From the sequence record OP172785: a stretch of DNA of 64,000 nucleotides, one strand, 5' to 3'. The notes beneath the pieces are model-generated. The model saw nothing but the letters and a program-made list of their open reading frames with translations. It was not told where the DNA came from and made no database searches. This stretch comes from Escherichia phage ECO07P2. The position numbers and the translations under genes are program-made. Below, piece by piece: positions 2,179 to 62,892 of this stretch. How positions within the stretch are numbered: the stretch's first letter is position 1; the number at the start of each line of letters is the position of its first letter.

Positions 2179-3189
2179 TCATTTATAATAACTTCGGTGG
2201 TTTTCAAGATAAACCCTCTCAAGGAAGTCATCCCAGAAACCCATGTCTACTTTTTGCTGCATACCGTTCTTAGAAGCTTCAATGGATGCTGCTTCTACTT
2301 GATCGACCACATCTTCCAAAAACTCTTGAACAGTTTTAAATGGATGTTTACCCAACTTCACGTCGAGAATAAATGGAGCATCTTGAAGTGGATAAACCAA
2401 GTCACCAGTTTTGTAAATTTCCAATAGTTGGAGTCCACCACGACAAGCATGACTCAGAGCTTTCCAGTCAATGCCCTCATTCGCTTCAGCCTTACGAGCA
2501 CGTTCGCCGTATTCAGCATCAAGTTTATTCAAAGACTGCTTAAGCTCAATAAGAGAAAGTGTTGTCTGATATTTACGACCCAACACAGTGTAAAACGTTT
2601 GTGGACCTGTTTTCTCATGATTATGGAACACCCATTCACAGAACTCGTTTTCTGGAAGACGATGCTTAATATCTTCAACTTTAGTGCGACGCTGCTTAAT
2701 GGAACCGTCTTCTTGGTAATCAACCCACTGATCAGGGATTTGATTAACTACTTTCAATACATCACGTAATGCGGCCAAACGAGAACCCTTGACACCATAT
2801 TTAGAAGCTTGCTTGCGGACATATCCTAAATAAGATTTCATGTTAGTTGTATAAAAACGAGAACGATTGTCTTGGATAAATTTCCATACATCAGGTAAAT
2901 CAGATTTAACCACTAGTTCAGGTGGAGTGTGGAGCATATCCAATGCTACAGTTTCACCATCTGCAGCTAATTTAAAGAAATACTTAAGACTGTATAGTTC
3001 ATGGTCAATATCATCTTTAGTGTTTTTAGATGATGTGTTGTTCGTGTTTTTACTCATATGCTCTTTAACATTTCCGATAAGAATATCGCGAGCAGGAGGA
3101 ACAAAGATTTCTTTAAAATCTACATCAGATTCTGGAGTAGAAGTTCCATAAAGATGACTACCAAAATAGCTTTTCATTACTGTTTTCAT
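2179..3189 (-). CDS. Pol-beta superfamily minimal nucleotidyltransferase-like protein (GS-x3-GT-x4-SDVD motif)
   Basis: 336 aa ORF; N-terminal FGSHLYGTSTPESDVDF matches the GS...[DE]x[DE] nucleotidyltransferase signature; long helical C-terminal region; family assignment by motif only. Confidence 0.6.
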   Translation of the reverse strand: MKTVMKSYFGSHLYGTSTPESDVDFKEIFVPPARDILIGNVKEHMSKNTNNTSSKNTKDDIDHELYSLKYFFKLAADGETVALDMLHTPPELVVKSDLPDVWKFIQDNRSRFYTTNMKSYLGYVRKQASKYGVKGSRLAALRDVLKVVNQIPDQWVDYQEDGSIKQRRTKVEDIKHRLPENEFCEWVFHNHEKTGPQTFYTVLGRKYQTTLSLIELKQSLNKLDAEYGERARKAEANEGIDWKALSHACRGGLQLLEIYKTGDLVYPLQDAPFILDVKLGKHPFKTVQEFLEDVVDQVEAASIEASKNGMQQKVDMGFWDDFLERVYLENHRSYYK

Positions 3190-5266: not shown

Positions 5267-5449
5267 TTAAACTCTCGTATTATGATCGATAATTTCATCA
5301 AGAAACATATCTAAAGCTTCTACAGCATTATCAACTTTAGCTTCAAATTCTTCAATACCTGATAAGGCAAAGTTAACGCGTTCCTCATCTGCTTTGCGAA
5401 TTAAAGCTACCAATTCTTTAATTTTATCTGCTTGTTCGATACTAATCAT
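5267..5449 (-). CDS. small hypothetical protein (about 60 aa)
   Basis: start moved to ATG at 5449 (GGTGG SD) which overlaps stop of upstream gene. Confidence 0.45.
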   Translation of the reverse strand: MISIEQADKIKELVALIRKADEERVNFALSGIEEFEAKVDNAVEALDMFLDEIIDHNTRV

Positions 5450-18045: not shown

Positions 18046-18351
18046 TTGCGGCAACCTTGTCGGGGTTCCACCTGCTAAGGCAAGTGTTTGTACGAAACGC
18101 CGGGACTTGAACCCGGTTATTAAGTAGTTGACGCTACTCAATATTTTTAAAAGGCCATATCTCGACCATATCCGAACGTTCCGTCAAAAACGCTACTCGG
18201 CTTACGGCAAAGATATTTCCTCGAATCGATAATTCGGTGCGCCGTTTCTGCTGTGATGTAAGGGGATATTAACAAATCGTAAAGATTTATTAAGACCAGT
18301 CCTTACTCAGGGAACATCAGTCCGACGACTTACCGGTAGCGACCCGGTTTC
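18046..18351 (-). ncRNA. ORF-free structured region; candidate stable small RNAs (position of T4 RNA species 1 and 2)
   Basis: 306 bp without ORF between terminator and tRNA cluster; minus strand carries a T-arm-like CCGGGTTCAAGTCCCGG; in T4 two stable RNAs lie distal to tRNA-Arg. Confidence 0.35.
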
Positions 18352-18702
18352 TTAATATTCTTTTAAAGCATCAATCTGTTCACGGCGTTTACGCCATAAA
18401 TCAATTGCCTCATACGCGGATTCAGCATTTCGAATTGGACGGCATTTATATAAAGACTTATGATTTTGATATTGCGTAGATAACGGAATTTTATCTAAAA
18501 GGTCTTTACGTTCAAAGTATTCGTAACCATCTAAACCAAATGAACGATTTTTGAGAAATTGCCAATGACCATATTCGTTTTCGACATAAACATAATCTGC
18601 ATGCTGATAAAGTAAATTAATTACACGTTCAGAAATAACAGTGTCATTGTGATTAAAATAGAATGTTAAATCATGAACTACTAAATAAACATTACCTTTC
18701 AT
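18352..18702 (-). CDS. hypothetical protein (116 aa) embedded in tRNA region
   Basis: ORF in track ending 16 nt before tRNA-Arg. Confidence 0.5.
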   Translation of the reverse strand: MKGNVYLVVHDLTFYFNHNDTVISERVINLLYQHADYVYVENEYGHWQFLKNRSFGLDGYEYFERKDLLDKIPLSTQYQNHKSLYKCRPIRNAESAYEAIDLWRKRREQIDALKEY

Positions 18703-18718
18703 ATTTTCCTCACTTAAT

Positions 18719-18794
18719 TGGTCGAGGCAGTAGGGATCGAACCTACGACCTAGGACTTAGAAGGTCCTTGCTCTTCCTTCTGAGCTATGCCCCG
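18719..18794 (-). tRNA. tRNA-Arg (anticodon UCU), CCA encoded
   Basis: hand-folded cloverleaf on minus strand; anticodon loop CUUCUAA; GGTTCGATCC T-arm. Confidence 0.8.
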
Positions 18795-18798
18795 TAAT

Positions 18799-18874
18799 TG
18801 GGGTGACCGATGGGAGTCGAACCCATGACTACGAGAATCACAATCTCGAGTTCTACCAACTGAACTACGGCCAC
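18799..18874 (-). tRNA. tRNA-His (anticodon GUG) with extra 5-prime G
   Basis: anticodon arm CGAGA-UUGUGAU-UCUCG; G-1 pairs with C73; T-arm GGGTTCGACTCCC. Confidence 0.7.
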
Positions 18875-18988
18875 ATTAATATCTACTCCAACAATCAAGA
18901 TGTCTTCACACGAAATTAAGAGAAGAGTGATCAGTTCAACCCCGATAATCGCGTCAAGTAGATATTAATGTGACAGTTGTCACAAATT

Positions 18989-19063
18989 TGGCGGACGTGA
19001 TAGGATTCGAACCTATAACCAATCGCTTAACAGGCGATCGCTCTGCCATTGAGCTACACATCC
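18989..19063 (-). tRNA. tRNA-Asn (anticodon GUU)
   Basis: anticodon arm ATCGC-CUGUUAA-GCGAT; T-arm ATAGG-TTCGAAT-CCTAT. Confidence 0.7.
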
Positions 19064-19067
19064 AAAT

Positions 19068-19154
19068 TGGTGGGGAGTGATGGAGTCGAACCACCCGAGT
19101 CGCAATGACAATGGATTTACAGTCCACACCGCTACCTCTACGGGATAACTCCCC
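19068..19154 (-). tRNA. tRNA-Tyr (anticodon GUA), long variable arm
   Basis: acceptor GGGGAGT/ACTCCCC; anticodon loop CUGUAAA; class II length 87 nt. Confidence 0.65.
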
Positions 19155-19167
19155 TTAATTCTTAATT

Positions 19168-19242
19168 TGGTGGCCCTGGGTGGAATTGAACCACCATCTG
19201 GCGATTATGAGTCGCTTGCTTGAACCTTCCAGCTACAGGGCC
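19168..19242 (-). tRNA. tRNA with CAU anticodon (T4 tRNA-Ile-like; Met by anticodon alone)
   Basis: anticodon loop CUCAUAA; adjacent to tRNA-Thr as the T4 Thr-Ile pair. Confidence 0.65.
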
Positions 19243-19243
19243 T

Positions 19244-19319
19244 TGGTGCTGATTGACGGAATCGAACCGCCGACCTTCTCATTACAAGTGAGTTGCTCTA
19301 CCTACTGAGCTAAATCAGC
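19244..19319 (-). tRNA. tRNA-Thr (anticodon UGU)
   Basis: acceptor GCTGATT/AATCAGC; anticodon loop CUUGUAA; T-arm GGCGG-TTCGATT-CCGTC. Confidence 0.75.
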
Positions 19320-19324
19320 AAAAC

Positions 19325-19414
19325 TGGCGGAGGCGATAGGATTTGAACCTATGAGTCGCCGGAGCGACTGCCGGTTTTCAAGACCGGTGCATTAAACCAC
19401 TCTGCCACGCCTCC
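19325..19414 (-). tRNA. tRNA-Ser (anticodon UGA), long variable arm
   Basis: anticodon arm CCGGT-CUUGAAA-ACCGG; 90 nt class II. Confidence 0.75.
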
Positions 19415-19416
19415 AG

Positions 19417-19490
19417 TCTCCATACAAGGATTTGAACCTTGGACCTCCTGATCCCAAATCAGGCGCTCTACCAAACTGAGCTACACGGAG
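19417..19490 (-). tRNA. tRNA-Pro (anticodon UGG), CCA not encoded
   Basis: anticodon arm CCTGA-UUUGGGA-TCAGG; only 2 nt from tRNA-Ser 5-prime end (dimeric precursor as in T4). Confidence 0.75.
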
Positions 19491-19500
19491 TAAATTAAAT

Positions 19501-19574
<74 letters not shown>

Positions 19575-19579
19575 AAATT

Positions 19580-19666
19580 TGGTGCGAGAAGTGGGACTCG
19601 AACCCACAAGGAAATCATTCCGCAGCATTTTAAGTGCTGTGCCTTTACCAATTTGACCATTCTCGC
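19580..19666 (-). tRNA. tRNA-Leu (anticodon UAA), long variable arm
   Basis: anticodon arm CAGCA-CUUAAAA-TGCTG; 87 nt. Confidence 0.75.
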
Positions 19667-19667
19667 G

Positions 19668-19740
19668 CTGGGAATAAAGGACTCGAACCTTTGCATCCTG
19701 GAATCAAAATCCAGTGCCTTACCAACTTGGCTAATTCCCA
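19668..19740 (-). tRNA. tRNA-Gln (anticodon UUG), CCA not encoded
   Basis: acceptor TGGGAAT/ATTCCCA; anticodon arm CTGGA-UUUUGAU-TCCAG; 1 nt from tRNA-Leu (Gln-Leu dimeric precursor). Confidence 0.75.
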
Positions 19741-19837
19741 ATTATTAACAAAGGCTCTCAAGCAAGAACCCTTGATGATAGAGGGTATTAATCAGTGCGA
19801 TATGAGTTAATAATAACAAATAATTCTTAAAGCATAT

Positions 19838-20125
19838 TTACCATTTATGATAATACATATTTACGATGCATTCAAGACCCAAAGGATTCTTGAAAATATC
19901 ATATTCAAGAGGACCTTTTTCTGTTTCAATAAAGAAATCAAAATTTACTGTATTAAATTTACGGTCTTCCTTCACTAATTTAACTTGAGAAGATGAACGG
20001 TCAATGTAAACCTTTTCAACTTCAAAACATGTTAAAATGCCATAATCATCAATCAAGGCTTTAGCCGCATCTTGATCATATTTATATCCATTTTCAATGG
20101 ACGATACTTTCGCATAAAGAATCAT
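19838..20125 (-). CDS. hypothetical protein (95 aa)
   Basis: ORF in track. Confidence 0.5.
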   Translation of the reverse strand: MILYAKVSSIENGYKYDQDAAKALIDDYGILTCFEVEKVYIDRSSSQVKLVKEDRKFNTVNFDFFIETEKGPLEYDIFKNPLGLECIVNMYYHKW

Positions 20126-49763: not shown

Positions 49764-50005
49764 TGGAAGGTTTAATTGAAGCTATTAAATCAAACGACCT
49801 CGTAGCCGCTCGTAAATTATTTGCTGAAGCCATGGCTGCAAGAACGATTGATTTAATTAAAGAAGAAAAAATCGCTATCGCTCGTAATTTCTTAATTGAA
49901 GGTGAAGAACCTGAAGATGAGGATGATGACGAAGATGGTGATGATAAAGACGACAAAAAAGACAAAGACTCTGATGAAGATGACGAAGACGAGGATGATG
50001 AATAA
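49763..50005 (+). CDS. 67: prohead core protein gp67
   Basis: 80 aa with poly-acidic C-terminus. Confidence 0.85.
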
Positions 50006-62092: not shown

Positions 62093-62113
62093 ATTTAGCT
62101 CCTTTATTTATCA

Positions 62114-62125
62114 TATTTATAAATA
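62114..62125. promoter_or_regulatory. overlapping divergent late promoters (TATTTATAAATA) for genes 26 and 51
   Basis: plus TATAAATA 62118-62125 and minus TATAAATA (plus tatttata 62114-62121) share the central TATA. Confidence 0.6.
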
Positions 62126-62142
62126 GAATAAAAGGAGCATCT

Positions 62143-62892
62143 ATGGCAAACATTATTCGTTGTAAATTACCAGATGGTGTTCATCGTTTTAAACCATTTA
62201 CGGTAGAAGATTATCGAGATTTTTTGTTAGTTCGAAACGATATAGAACATCGGTCACCACAAGAACAAAAAGAAATAATTACTGATTTAATTGATGATTA
62301 TTTTGGAGACTATCCGAAGACTTGGCAACCATTTATATTTTTGCAGGTATTTGTAGGGTCAATAGGTAAAACTAAAGTACCAGTCACATTCGTATGTCCA
62401 AAATGTAAAAAAGAAAAGACAGTTCCATTTGAAATATATCAAAAAGAATTAAAGGAACCTGTTTTTGATGTAGCTAATGTTAAAATTAAATTAAAGTTTC
62501 CTTCTGAGTTTTATGAAAATAAAGCAAAGATGATTACTGAAAATATTCATTCTGTTCAAGTAGATGAAACATGGTATGATTGGAAGGAAATTAGTGAATC
62601 AAGTCAAATAGAACTTGTTGATGCCATCGAGATAGAAACATTAGAAAAAATTCTCGATGCAATGAATCCTATTAATTTAACATTGCATATGTCCTGCTGT
62701 GACAAGTATGTAAAAAAATACACTGATATAGTAGATGTGTTTAAGCTATTAGTTAACCCAGATGAAATATTTACTTTTTATCAAATTAATCACACGCTCG
62801 TAAAAAGTAATTATAGCTTAAATTCAATAATGAAAATGATTCCTGCCGAGCGCGGATTCGTATTAAAACTGATTGAGAAGGATAAACAATAA
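62143..62892 (+). CDS. 51: baseplate hub assembly protein gp51
   Basis: 249 aa as in T4. Confidence 0.85.

Follow-up and report, generated by a model that had tools for sequence, protein, structure and literature searches.

By comparative sequence analysis, the 114-nucleotide spacer that separates tRNA-Asn from tRNA-His in the tRNA array of a T4-like phage belongs to an unannotated family of non-coding structured RNAs whose pairing is supported by covariation. In its common form the RNA is closed by a helix, P1, that ends at the base immediately preceding tRNA-His, and members of the family are present in about 390 phage genomes, distributed over at least eight Straboviridae genera and a few Vequintavirinae.

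Phage tRNA clusters are currently under re-examination as tools of counter-defense. The non-tRNA RNAs embedded in them, such as species 1 and 2 of T4 and RNA I, III and IV of T5, have to our knowledge been assigned no function in the decades since their discovery. The family described here includes the widely used BASEL Tequatroviruses (for example MZ501046 and MZ501113), AR1 and wV7 among its sequenced carriers and comes with structural and covariance models. It also ties in a second puzzle, namely that the tRNA-His genes of T4-like phages, T5, KB57 and phiAS5 lack the G-1 required by the host synthetase. Each of these genes is preceded by a helix ending at -1 or -2, and the link between G-1 and the helix makes a long-standing question directly testable.

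Locus and fold of the spacer RNA

The window (the whole 64-kb stretch of DNA that was analyzed) derives from a Tequatrovirus, and its tRNA region is ~99% identical to those of Shigella phages A2 and SH7 and of many Escherichia phages. ARAGORN identifies 11 minus-strand tRNA genes, listed as Gln, Leu, Gly, Pro, Ser, Thr, Met, Tyr, Asn, His and Arg, and the exact interval of 114 bases between tRNA-Asn and tRNA-His spans 18875-18988. Because the remaining gaps measure 0-13 nt, this interval is the sole long gap of the array. Its upstream neighbor, tRNA-Asn(GUU), occupies 18989-19063 on the minus strand (ARAGORN and Rfam), with 19 nt between its CCA end and P1. On the other side, tRNA-His(GUG) at 18799-18874, also on the minus strand (ARAGORN; 65 bits with the Rfam tRNA model), has C73, and its gene encodes the CCA end but lacks G-1. 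The flanking ORFs and tRNAs all lie on the minus strand. In sequence scans, the spacer showed no promoter-like site on this strand, and 18600-19900 was free of terminator-like sites. The spacer is a non-tRNA sequence inside the T-even tRNA transcription unit, co-oriented with all of its neighbors. Homologs of T4 rnaC and rnaD are also carried by the window, at 18091-18229 and 18236-18352.

A sequence-only reading of this DNA had remarked that the spacer does not fold as a tRNA, and the searches agree: ARAGORN calls no tRNA in 18875-18988, and neither a 2.5-kb nor a 131-nt search returned an Rfam tRNA-clan match in the spacer at E≤10. The matches to other Rfam families at this threshold are limited to chance miRNA and snoRNA matches of ~15 bits, which merely detect the long stem. 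Covariance models of self-cleaving ribozymes, Y RNA-like (YrlA) RNAs and T-boxes also gave no match in the spacer at E≤10, and YrlA matches were restricted to the neighboring tRNAs.

In the window, the element is a three-way junction enclosed by P1, a perfect 13-bp inverted repeat (ATTAATATCTACT / AGTAGATATTAAT). On the minus strand, the 5′ strand of P1 (AUUAAUAUCUACU, 18957-18969) pairs over its full length with the 3′ strand (AGUAGAUAUUAAU, 18875-18887), whose final base, the U at 18875, occupies position -1 of tRNA-His. If mismatches are admitted, the repeat lengthens to 24 nt (18864-18887 with 18957-18980, 88% complementary), and it ranks second among the 22 inverted repeats listed for the window. 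This dominant feature had been missed by the sequence-only reading. The features enclosed by P1 all lie on the same strand. The base of P2 is formed by ACGCG (18950-18954) and CGUGU (18908-18912) in a register that is ambiguous between ACG/CGU and ACGCG/CGUGU. The junction segment J23 follows, with the sequence GAA at 18905-18907 (family consensus GUGAAG or GACAA(A)C). The P3 hairpin GACA-UCUUGAU-UGUU (18890-18904) then pairs 18901-18904 with 18890-18893 around a 7-nt loop at 18894-18900. The variable domain is a hairpin that we term type A, GGGG-UUGAACUGAUCA-CUCU, at 18924-18943; changes in this hairpin among related phages are one-sided only but consistent with pairing (G to A, C to U). Upstream of P1, the leader is predicted to form a hairpin, H0, with the sequence GUGAC-AACU-GUCAC at 18970-18983 (minus strand), so that the tgtgaca-ttgtcaca hairpin described previously proves to be real. 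Compared with shuffled sequences, the spacer RNA folds with z=-3.45, and 1 of 200 shuffles folded equally well.

The T-arm-like segment proposed in the same reading exists as a string (GGGGTTGAACTG, 18932-18943), but the resemblance to a T-arm is superficial. The sequence GGGGUUGAACUG lacks a complementary CCCC; its predicted partner is CUCU, paired through G·U, and the loop comprises 12 nt rather than the 7-nt UUCRANY loop that a T-arm carries on a 5-bp stem.

Comparison of ~22 variants reveals a common architecture consisting of P1 (8-15 bp), a short junction, the P2 base (ACG.../...CGU) bearing the variable domain, J23, and P3 (3-4 bp with the loop YCWUGAU), after which the 3′ strand of P1 begins 1-3 nt later. 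Whole variable domains have been swapped between phages, with the rest of the scaffold remaining constant. Melville and the variant L014, for instance, carry at the type A position a hairpin of a second type, B (GGCAG-AAGUCAUGAAC-CUGCU), that is unrelated to type A, and Moonvirus, Winklervirus and other representatives carry further, different domains.

Covariation was evaluated on two alignments, one made with plain MAFFT (A2) and one fitted to the covariance model (A3, 23 distinct sequences). In these alignments, 93-94% of the cells at paired positions can pair versus 79-80% in shuffled alignments, and 13-15 pairs change on both sides versus ~6.5; none of 500 shuffles matched the observed values. 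Controls in which the helices were slid gave 29-52% paired cells. Taken by itself, the MAFFT alignment has 93% paired cells versus 80% in shuffles, 13 pairs with two-sided changes versus 6.4, and 29-51% paired cells in the slid controls. P1 has a paired fraction of 98%, and 10 of its 14 pairs show compensatory changes among the 23 distinct variants. The P1 sequences of KM16 and KLB31 are completely different, with pairing retained. All four P3 pairs vary on both sides (GCA/UGC, ACA/UGU, UCC/GGA), with 81% of cells paired. The P2 base (A3 columns 19-21/74-76) is 93% paired and nearly invariant, and therefore provides little covariation evidence. Comparison of related sequences thus establishes the fold of the element.

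The pairs of P1 also establish the strand of the element. P1 contains 38 G·U cells versus 6 non-pairs. Because G·U pairs become A·C mismatches on the opposite strand, this signature is strand-specific, and it indicates selection on the RNA of tRNA sense. In agreement with the signature, the family covariance model (R1) assigns the window 93 bits (E=4e-17) for the sense (minus) strand and 22 bits for the antisense (plus) strand. The model finds a single copy within the 64-kb window; the T4 locus and 25 unrelated viral loci gave no match. These negative-control loci were taken from a loose gapped pattern scan of viral contigs, which returned ~120 loci, nearly all of them chance matches.

Several additional structures were considered and rejected. 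An internal helix of the minimum free energy fold (GCGAUUA/UGAUUGU) is not conserved in the variants id4496 or Roth04 and is contradicted by the covariation of P3. The junction resembles that of a hammerhead ribozyme by eye (GUGAAGA compared with CUGAUGA), but core positions fail (C3 is replaced by G, and G8 by A in the L135 type), the lengths of the junction strands are unsuitable, and there is no model match. A kissing interaction between the P3 loop and the loop of the P2 domain (UGAU/AUCA or UCAUGA/UCAUGA) is possible in types A and B and absent in the L135 type. A T-box-like display of a His codon (CAC or CAU) for pairing with the tRNA-His anticodon is consistent only in types A and B; it was noticed only after many looks at the data, and we make no claim for it.

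Distribution of the family

BLAST searches with the spacer match 355 phage records, to which the variant classes add further records. Identity to the spacer is 95-99% in Tequatrovirus, ~87% in Enterobacter, Cronobacter and Erwinia phages, ~80% in Klebsiella phages and 77% in Salmonella phage Melville, and divergent classes are found in Moonvirus, Winklervirus, Kanagawavirus, Kagamiyamavirus and Pectobacterium phage PM2. Among the matches listed, GenBank places no annotation beneath the spacer match in nearly all cases. A comparison with the tRNA clusters of related phages, which had been suggested as a check on the sequence-only reading, shows conservation of the element, with compensatory changes across genera. 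tRNA-His itself occurs in 389 phage records, and these record counts imply that the element and tRNA-His essentially co-occur. The two travel as one block, and T4 itself has neither.

Five distinct members lack a downstream tRNA-His: those of W70, KLB31 and CF1, the second copy in Merlin and the first copy in KM16. The last of these recurs in Ursula, and KM16 and Ursula carry tandem pairs. In the Vequintavirinae phages W70 and A7_1, the element is flanked by tRNA-Gly and tRNA-Gln. Merlin's second copy follows tRNA-Asn and precedes a CDS, and the KLB31 copy precedes tRNA-Leu. Copies without tRNA-His indicate that the module is able to exist independently. Comparison of the window with a Vequintavirinae phage shows 87% conservation in the core but a completely rewritten P1.

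No sequence similarity to the element was detected in E. coli genomes, and the element is therefore not a mimic of a host RNA by sequence. A scan of a bacterial genome collection for the P1/tRNA-His junction did not find the element; its two matches, at loci devoid of both a tRNA and a model match, were taken as chance. A separate scan of metagenomes with a tRNA-His pattern yielded no new variants and returned mostly unrelated tRNA-His genes of freshwater phages that encode G-1. In the literature on the core sequences and on the RNAs of phage tRNA arrays, no description of the element was found. Rfam also lacks T4 rnaC and rnaD, both of which are present in the window, and absence from this database is consequently weak evidence for novelty.

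Junction with tRNA-His and candidate roles

The adjacency of the element to tRNA-His is exact. Zero spacing between the two was confirmed in 16 distinct variants, and P1 terminates at -1 in every instance that has a downstream tRNA-His. The base at -1 is U in every variant, which means that the phage tRNA-His gene has no encoded G-1; the partner of this U is the first base of P1, not C73. Otherwise, the phage tRNA-His aligns base for base with E. coli tRNA-His minus G-1. In bacteria, G-1 is retained through a shifted RNase P cut. The G-1:C73 pair is essential for His identity and HisRS recognition in E. coli (PMC9976931). The arrangement extends to more distant phages, in that a helix ending at -1 or -2 precedes a tRNA-His with U-1 in phiAS5 (an Aeromonas phage, Chrysonvirus) and KB57 (a Klebsiella phage, Mydovirus).

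The leader upstream of P1 is also related to tRNA-His. The 3′ arm of H0, GUCAC, is a copy of the 3′ acceptor strand of tRNA-His, and this sequence lies directly 5′ of P1 in all nine tabulated instances that have both a free leader and a downstream tRNA-His. The leader ends in 12 nt (18970-18981, GACAACUGUCAC) with complementarity to positions +1 to +12 of tRNA-His. The complementarity is 10 of 12 in the window and in KM16, and 11 of 12 in L006 and L135, whose leader sequence differs; random 12-mers from the window reach at least 10 matches with P=0.005 and at least 11 with P=0.0005. Genera in which P1 begins 1-2 nt past the CCA of tRNA-Gln have no free anti-acceptor leader.

P1 and the leader:tRNA-His pairing are together predicted to form a helix of ~25 positions, 2 of them mismatched. 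This length would suit RNase III, whose processing stems comprise about 20 bp or more of nearly continuous duplex. A P1 of 13-15 bp alone is short for this enzyme. In the window, the 5′ arm of H0 competes for GUCAC. In a nearest-neighbor model, the conformer with the extended helix (~25 bp, with the 5′ half of tRNA-His sequestered) has a free energy of -58.4 kcal/mol versus -55.8 kcal/mol for H0 plus the cloverleaf, and the two predicted conformers are thus nearly isoenergetic. From this modeled layout we infer that the region might act as a conformational switch or as an RNase III-type processing helix. RNase III is reported to participate in the maturation of T4 tRNAs (PMC4810235).

We propose, with moderate confidence, that 18875-18988 is a self-contained cassette for a non-coding structured RNA that forms the 5′ leader of phage tRNA-His and would be excised as a probably stable product. 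We infer its expression, RNA ends, excision and stability as follows. The cassette would be transcribed together with the tRNAs, on the minus strand, and excised as the 5′ terminus of tRNA-His is formed, giving an RNA of ~95-115 nt with its ends locked in P1. An RNA with ends locked in this manner would be expected to persist, as T5 RNA III and T4 species 1 and 2 do. The sequence-only reading had offered a small RNA processed from a polycistronic precursor as one of three possibilities, and this is the best supported of the three, given the selection on the tRNA-sense strand, the coincidence of the ends with tRNA boundaries and the occurrence of T5 RNA III at the equivalent position.

The cassette may also work in cis on the maturation of tRNA-His. 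Such a role is suggested by the extension of P1 to -1, by U-1 and by the ~25-bp helix that includes the leader:tRNA-His pairing, and we consider a contribution to 5′ maturation plausible on these grounds. Conversely, a helix that abuts +1 would be expected to hinder rather than help RNase P, which counts against the cis role. Further points against the proposal as a whole are the five members that lack a downstream tRNA-His, the genera with no free anti-acceptor leader, the negative homology searches with T5 RNA III, and the ambiguous register and low variability of the P2 base.

It is possible, though less probable, that the element is purely a gene for a trans-acting small RNA, such as a decoy, a sponge or an aptamer scaffold. 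The tRNA operon would then serve for expression and excision, and adjacency to tRNA-His would be historical. The copies that lack tRNA-His (W70, the second Merlin copy, KLB31 and the tandem arrangements of KM16 and Ursula) are readily accommodated by this explanation. So are the conservation of the core between the window and a Vequintavirinae phage despite the rewritten P1 and the exchange of the P2 domain between genera on a constant scaffold. The copies that lack tRNA-His, together with the strong conservation of junction and loop sequences, also speak for an independent trans function alongside the leader role. The T5 and T4 records, moreover, annotate stable RNAs at comparable sites in their tRNA clusters. 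Nonetheless, the zero spacing to tRNA-His in nearly all of the family's records argues for a connection with that gene, the complementarity of the leader to the 5′ half of tRNA-His would be left unexplained, and we found no target or partner, with nothing similar in E. coli genomes.

A more specific form of the cis role, which we regard as speculative and rather unlikely, has the cassette serve as a processing device by which enterobacterial phages overcome the G-1 problem of their tRNA-His. Lengthened by the anti-acceptor leader, P1 would place a cut 1 nt upstream of the site that RNase P normally uses; the enzyme could be RNase III, acting within the ~25-bp helix, or an RNase P displaced from its usual position. 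A phage tRNA-His matured in this way would retain U-1, bearing a 5′ phosphate, and could be charged by the host HisRS. If this were true, T4-like, T5-like and Vequintavirinae phages would share a common solution to the lack of G-1, the "stable RNA" would be a by-product, and T5 RNA III would be explained after 40 years.

We consider it improbable that the element is a passive structured spacer or insulator, which folds on itself so that the neighboring tRNAs remain undisturbed and has no further function. Other long spacers of related arrays, when folded, do mostly close with a terminal helix (the 96-nt His>Ser, 66-nt Ser>Ile and 157-nt Asp>Met spacers), and the 3′ domain of the 243-nt Asn>Asp spacer is likewise closed in this way. 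However, sequence conservation in the element exceeds what self-folding needs, affecting J23 (GUGAAG or GACAAC), the P3 loop (YCWUGAU) and the type A loop, and this conservation spans genera and reaches Vequintavirinae.

The remaining explanations carry very little weight. The other two possibilities offered by the sequence-only reading, namely a tRNA gene in decay and a scar, taken as neutral, left where the tRNA-His block was inserted, are highly improbable: GGGGTTGAAC does recall a T-arm in its 5′ half, and H0 copies the top of the tRNA-His acceptor stem, but ARAGORN and the Rfam tRNA model give no match even at E≤10, compensatory changes across genera maintain a conserved three-way junction rather than a cloverleaf, and relatives carry unrelated hairpins at the T-arm-like position. 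Neither the decayed tRNA nor the neutral scar is supported, although the element and tRNA-His do move as a block.

Similarly, it is highly unlikely that this is a DNA-level element, either a MITE-like transposon with terminal inverted repeats or a protein-binding palindrome. The inverted repeat of 13-24 bp, the conserved termini (ATTAATATT...AATATTGAT) around a variable interior, and the copies at several array positions across phages would fit such an element. Against this, the excess of G·U pairs over the 6 mismatches of the A·C type is an RNA-level, strand-specific signature, there is one copy in the 64-kb window, and no transposase is apparent in the annotated neighborhoods examined. The flanks are inverted, not direct, and thus there is no target-site duplication.

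A small protein encoded on the plus (antisense) strand by the ORF at 18901-18969 (MSSHEIKRRVISSTPIIASSRY) is scarcely credible: this ATG-initiated frame of 22-24 codons is open in several variants with a shared N-terminus, M(M)PSH or MRCH, but it is cut to 8-16 codons or missing in L014, W70, Melville, CHI14, EcS1 and all class II members, it is preceded by no Shine-Dalgarno-like sequence (by eye) and by no promoter-like site on the plus strand, and the shared N-terminus is accounted for by the conserved J23/P3 motif of the RNA, read in reverse complement. The strand signature, the lack of ORF conservation and the single copy together leave a coding function, a DNA palindrome and a terminal-inverted-repeat transposon poorly supported.

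Comparison with known RNAs and processing systems

The proposed cassette would resemble RNase III processing helices, such as those of rRNA operons and the T4 tRNA precursor, in that sequences flanking an RNA segment could pair into a long helix, here of up to about 25 bp (13 bp from P1 and 12 bp between the leader and tRNA-His). It differs in that the extension of the helix is absent where the element directly follows tRNA-Gln, and in that cleavage is here a prediction. With E. coli pre-tRNA-His the phage genes share the same identity problem, since HisRS requires an extra 5′ nucleotide opposite C73 (PMC9976931). E. coli pre-tRNA-His encodes G-1, whereas the phage genes encode U at this position.

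Non-tRNA stable RNAs in phage tRNA clusters are a kind known since the 1970s-80s. Among them, the T4 species 1 and 2 RNAs (rnaC and rnaD) are co-transcribed with tRNAs and have no known function. Like the element, they are non-tRNA RNAs of the T-even tRNA cluster, 119-139 nt in length, and they are annotated as "small, stable RNA". A three-way alignment found no meaningful similarity of rnaC and rnaD to the element. Furthermore, the T4 RNAs follow tRNA-Arg, whereas the window element precedes tRNA-His, and rnaC has a tRNA-like T-arm (GGGUUCGAAUCCC) that the window element lacks.

A closer parallel is provided by T5, whose record contains a 106-nt misc_RNA, "RNAIII, stable RNA with unknown functions", that directly abuts tRNA-His (5285-5390 of the T5 sequence L185); RNA I and tRNA-like RNA 1 lie upstream of it. 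As does the window element, RNA III resides in a tRNA cluster, directly 5′ of a phage tRNA-His and on the same strand. Its predicted fold is multi-branched, with a terminal helix of 12-14 bp that ends at -2/-1 of tRNA-His (z=-2.85). The 5′ flank of RNA III, CCACAAU, complements AUUGUGG, a segment that includes U-1 and G1-G4 of tRNA-His, and the T5 tRNA-His has U at -1 and C73, as in the window. Among the T5 tRNAs called by ARAGORN in the scanned stretch, the annotation of tRNA-His (78 nt) uniquely includes U-1, whereas the other 19 are annotated with the ARAGORN coordinates.

RNA III nonetheless differs from the family in its predicted four-way junction with a 12-bp middle hairpin, compared with the three-way junction of the family, and it is annotated as stable in the T5 record, whereas the window element is known from sequence alone. 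Model R1 gave no match in 20 kb of T5 with default filters, and with filters off the best score was 8 bits (E=0.38), such that homology to RNA III was not detected. Because homology is not demonstrated, we regard T5 RNA III as the closest known analog and positional counterpart of the element rather than as a member of the family.

A further connection may exist through RNA I of T5, which shares AGUGUAACGGU and a 3′ GCYGYCAC with an element of 115 nt that Karamvirus and Gelderlandvirus phages carry before the His-leader. This sharing hints that the block of RNA I, RNA III and tRNA-His could be an old shared cassette. The 115-nt element is observed ahead of the His-leader in T4-like phages of Enterobacter, Salmonella and Citrobacter. 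As judged from these comparisons, the family is a much more widespread addition to the non-tRNA RNAs of phage tRNA clusters, and one that comes with a structural model and a link to tRNA-His.

RNA I-like element upstream of the His-leader

In Karamvirus and Gelderlandvirus, an additional element of 115-190 nt occupies the interval from tRNA-Gln to the His-leader, the structured non-coding RNA directly 5' of tRNA-His (L003 576-694, L004 1295-1413 and L173 120-306, as minus-strand or sense RNA). When we compared it with T5 RNA I (L185 5395-5501), one of the RNAs annotated as stable in the T5 record, both were found to carry AGUGUAACGGU near the 5' end and GCYGYCAC at the 3' end. These two shared motifs suggest that RNA I, RNA III and tRNA-His may form an ancient common block.

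Other non-tRNA sequences in related arrays

Related tRNA arrays contain several further conserved non-tRNA spacers, namely Ser>Ile (66 nt), His>Ser (96 nt), Asp>Met (∼157 nt) and Asn>Asp (∼243 nt), where X>Y denotes the spacer between tRNA-X and tRNA-Y. Conserved spacers of this kind lie at 878-943, 1029-1124, 1454-1614 and 1692-1946 in locus L002 and at 854-1010 and 1087-1329 in the Enterobacter phage locus L003; equivalents are also present in L006, L014, L135 and L170. In predicted folds, a terminal helix closes the Ser>Ile, His>Ser and Asp>Met spacers and the 3' domain of Asn>Asp, and all four look like further uncharacterised RNA families. The feature tables of L002, L003 and L170 place no RNA feature on these spacers, and in L002 and L170 some are overlapped by short “hypothetical protein” CDS.

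tRNA-like sequences are found in the Gln>His gap of KM16 (L171 ∼2270-2381, minus strand) and of Ursula (L178 253-378), and downstream of the element copy in CF1 (L177 530-630). Each has a canonical T-arm, such as GUGGGUUCAAGUCCCAC, together with an acceptor-like stem, but carries long internal insertions. ARAGORN, run on KM16, makes no tRNA call at this sequence.

Other features of the window

A plus-strand ORF of 22 codons, MSSHEIKRRVISSTPIIASSRY, runs antisense within the His-leader (18901-18969). It is open in several relatives, not family-wide, and inspection by eye reveals no ribosome-binding site for it. Two other long inverted repeats (62096-62143 and 49784-49857), with arms of 24-28 nt that are 75-79% complementary, rank alongside the repeat of P1, the closing helix of the His-leader.

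Homologues of rnaC (T4 species 1 RNA; 18091-18229, 98% identity) and rnaD (T4 species 2 RNA; 18236-18352, 89% identity) are encoded on the minus strand, and neither matches an Rfam family. Full-length rnaC-like RNAs also occur from tRNA-Trp to tRNA-Gly in Melville (L004 802-956) and KM16 (L171 1627-1778), and in Enterobacter phages only a 50-nt 5' fragment of rnaC persists between tRNA-Trp and the next tRNA (L003 181-230, L006 7766-7815). Between the window's homologues and tRNA-Arg lies a minus-strand ORF of 116 codons (18352-18702); T4 does not have this ORF here.

Position -1 of tRNA-His

The G-1:C73 pair is a requirement of E. coli HisRS (PMC9976931). C73 and an encoded CCA are present in tRNA-His of the window (18799-18874, minus strand), T5, KB57 and phiAS5, which represent enterobacterial and Aeromonas phages. 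Position -1, however, is U rather than G in all four (window 18875, minus strand; L185 5284 in T5; L181 in KB57; L180 in phiAS5), so none of these genes encodes the pair. In the T5 record, tRNA-His is deliberately annotated with this U, at 78 nt versus 77 by ARAGORN. Unlike these four, the unrelated tRNA-His genes of freshwater phages (L138-L168) encode G-1.
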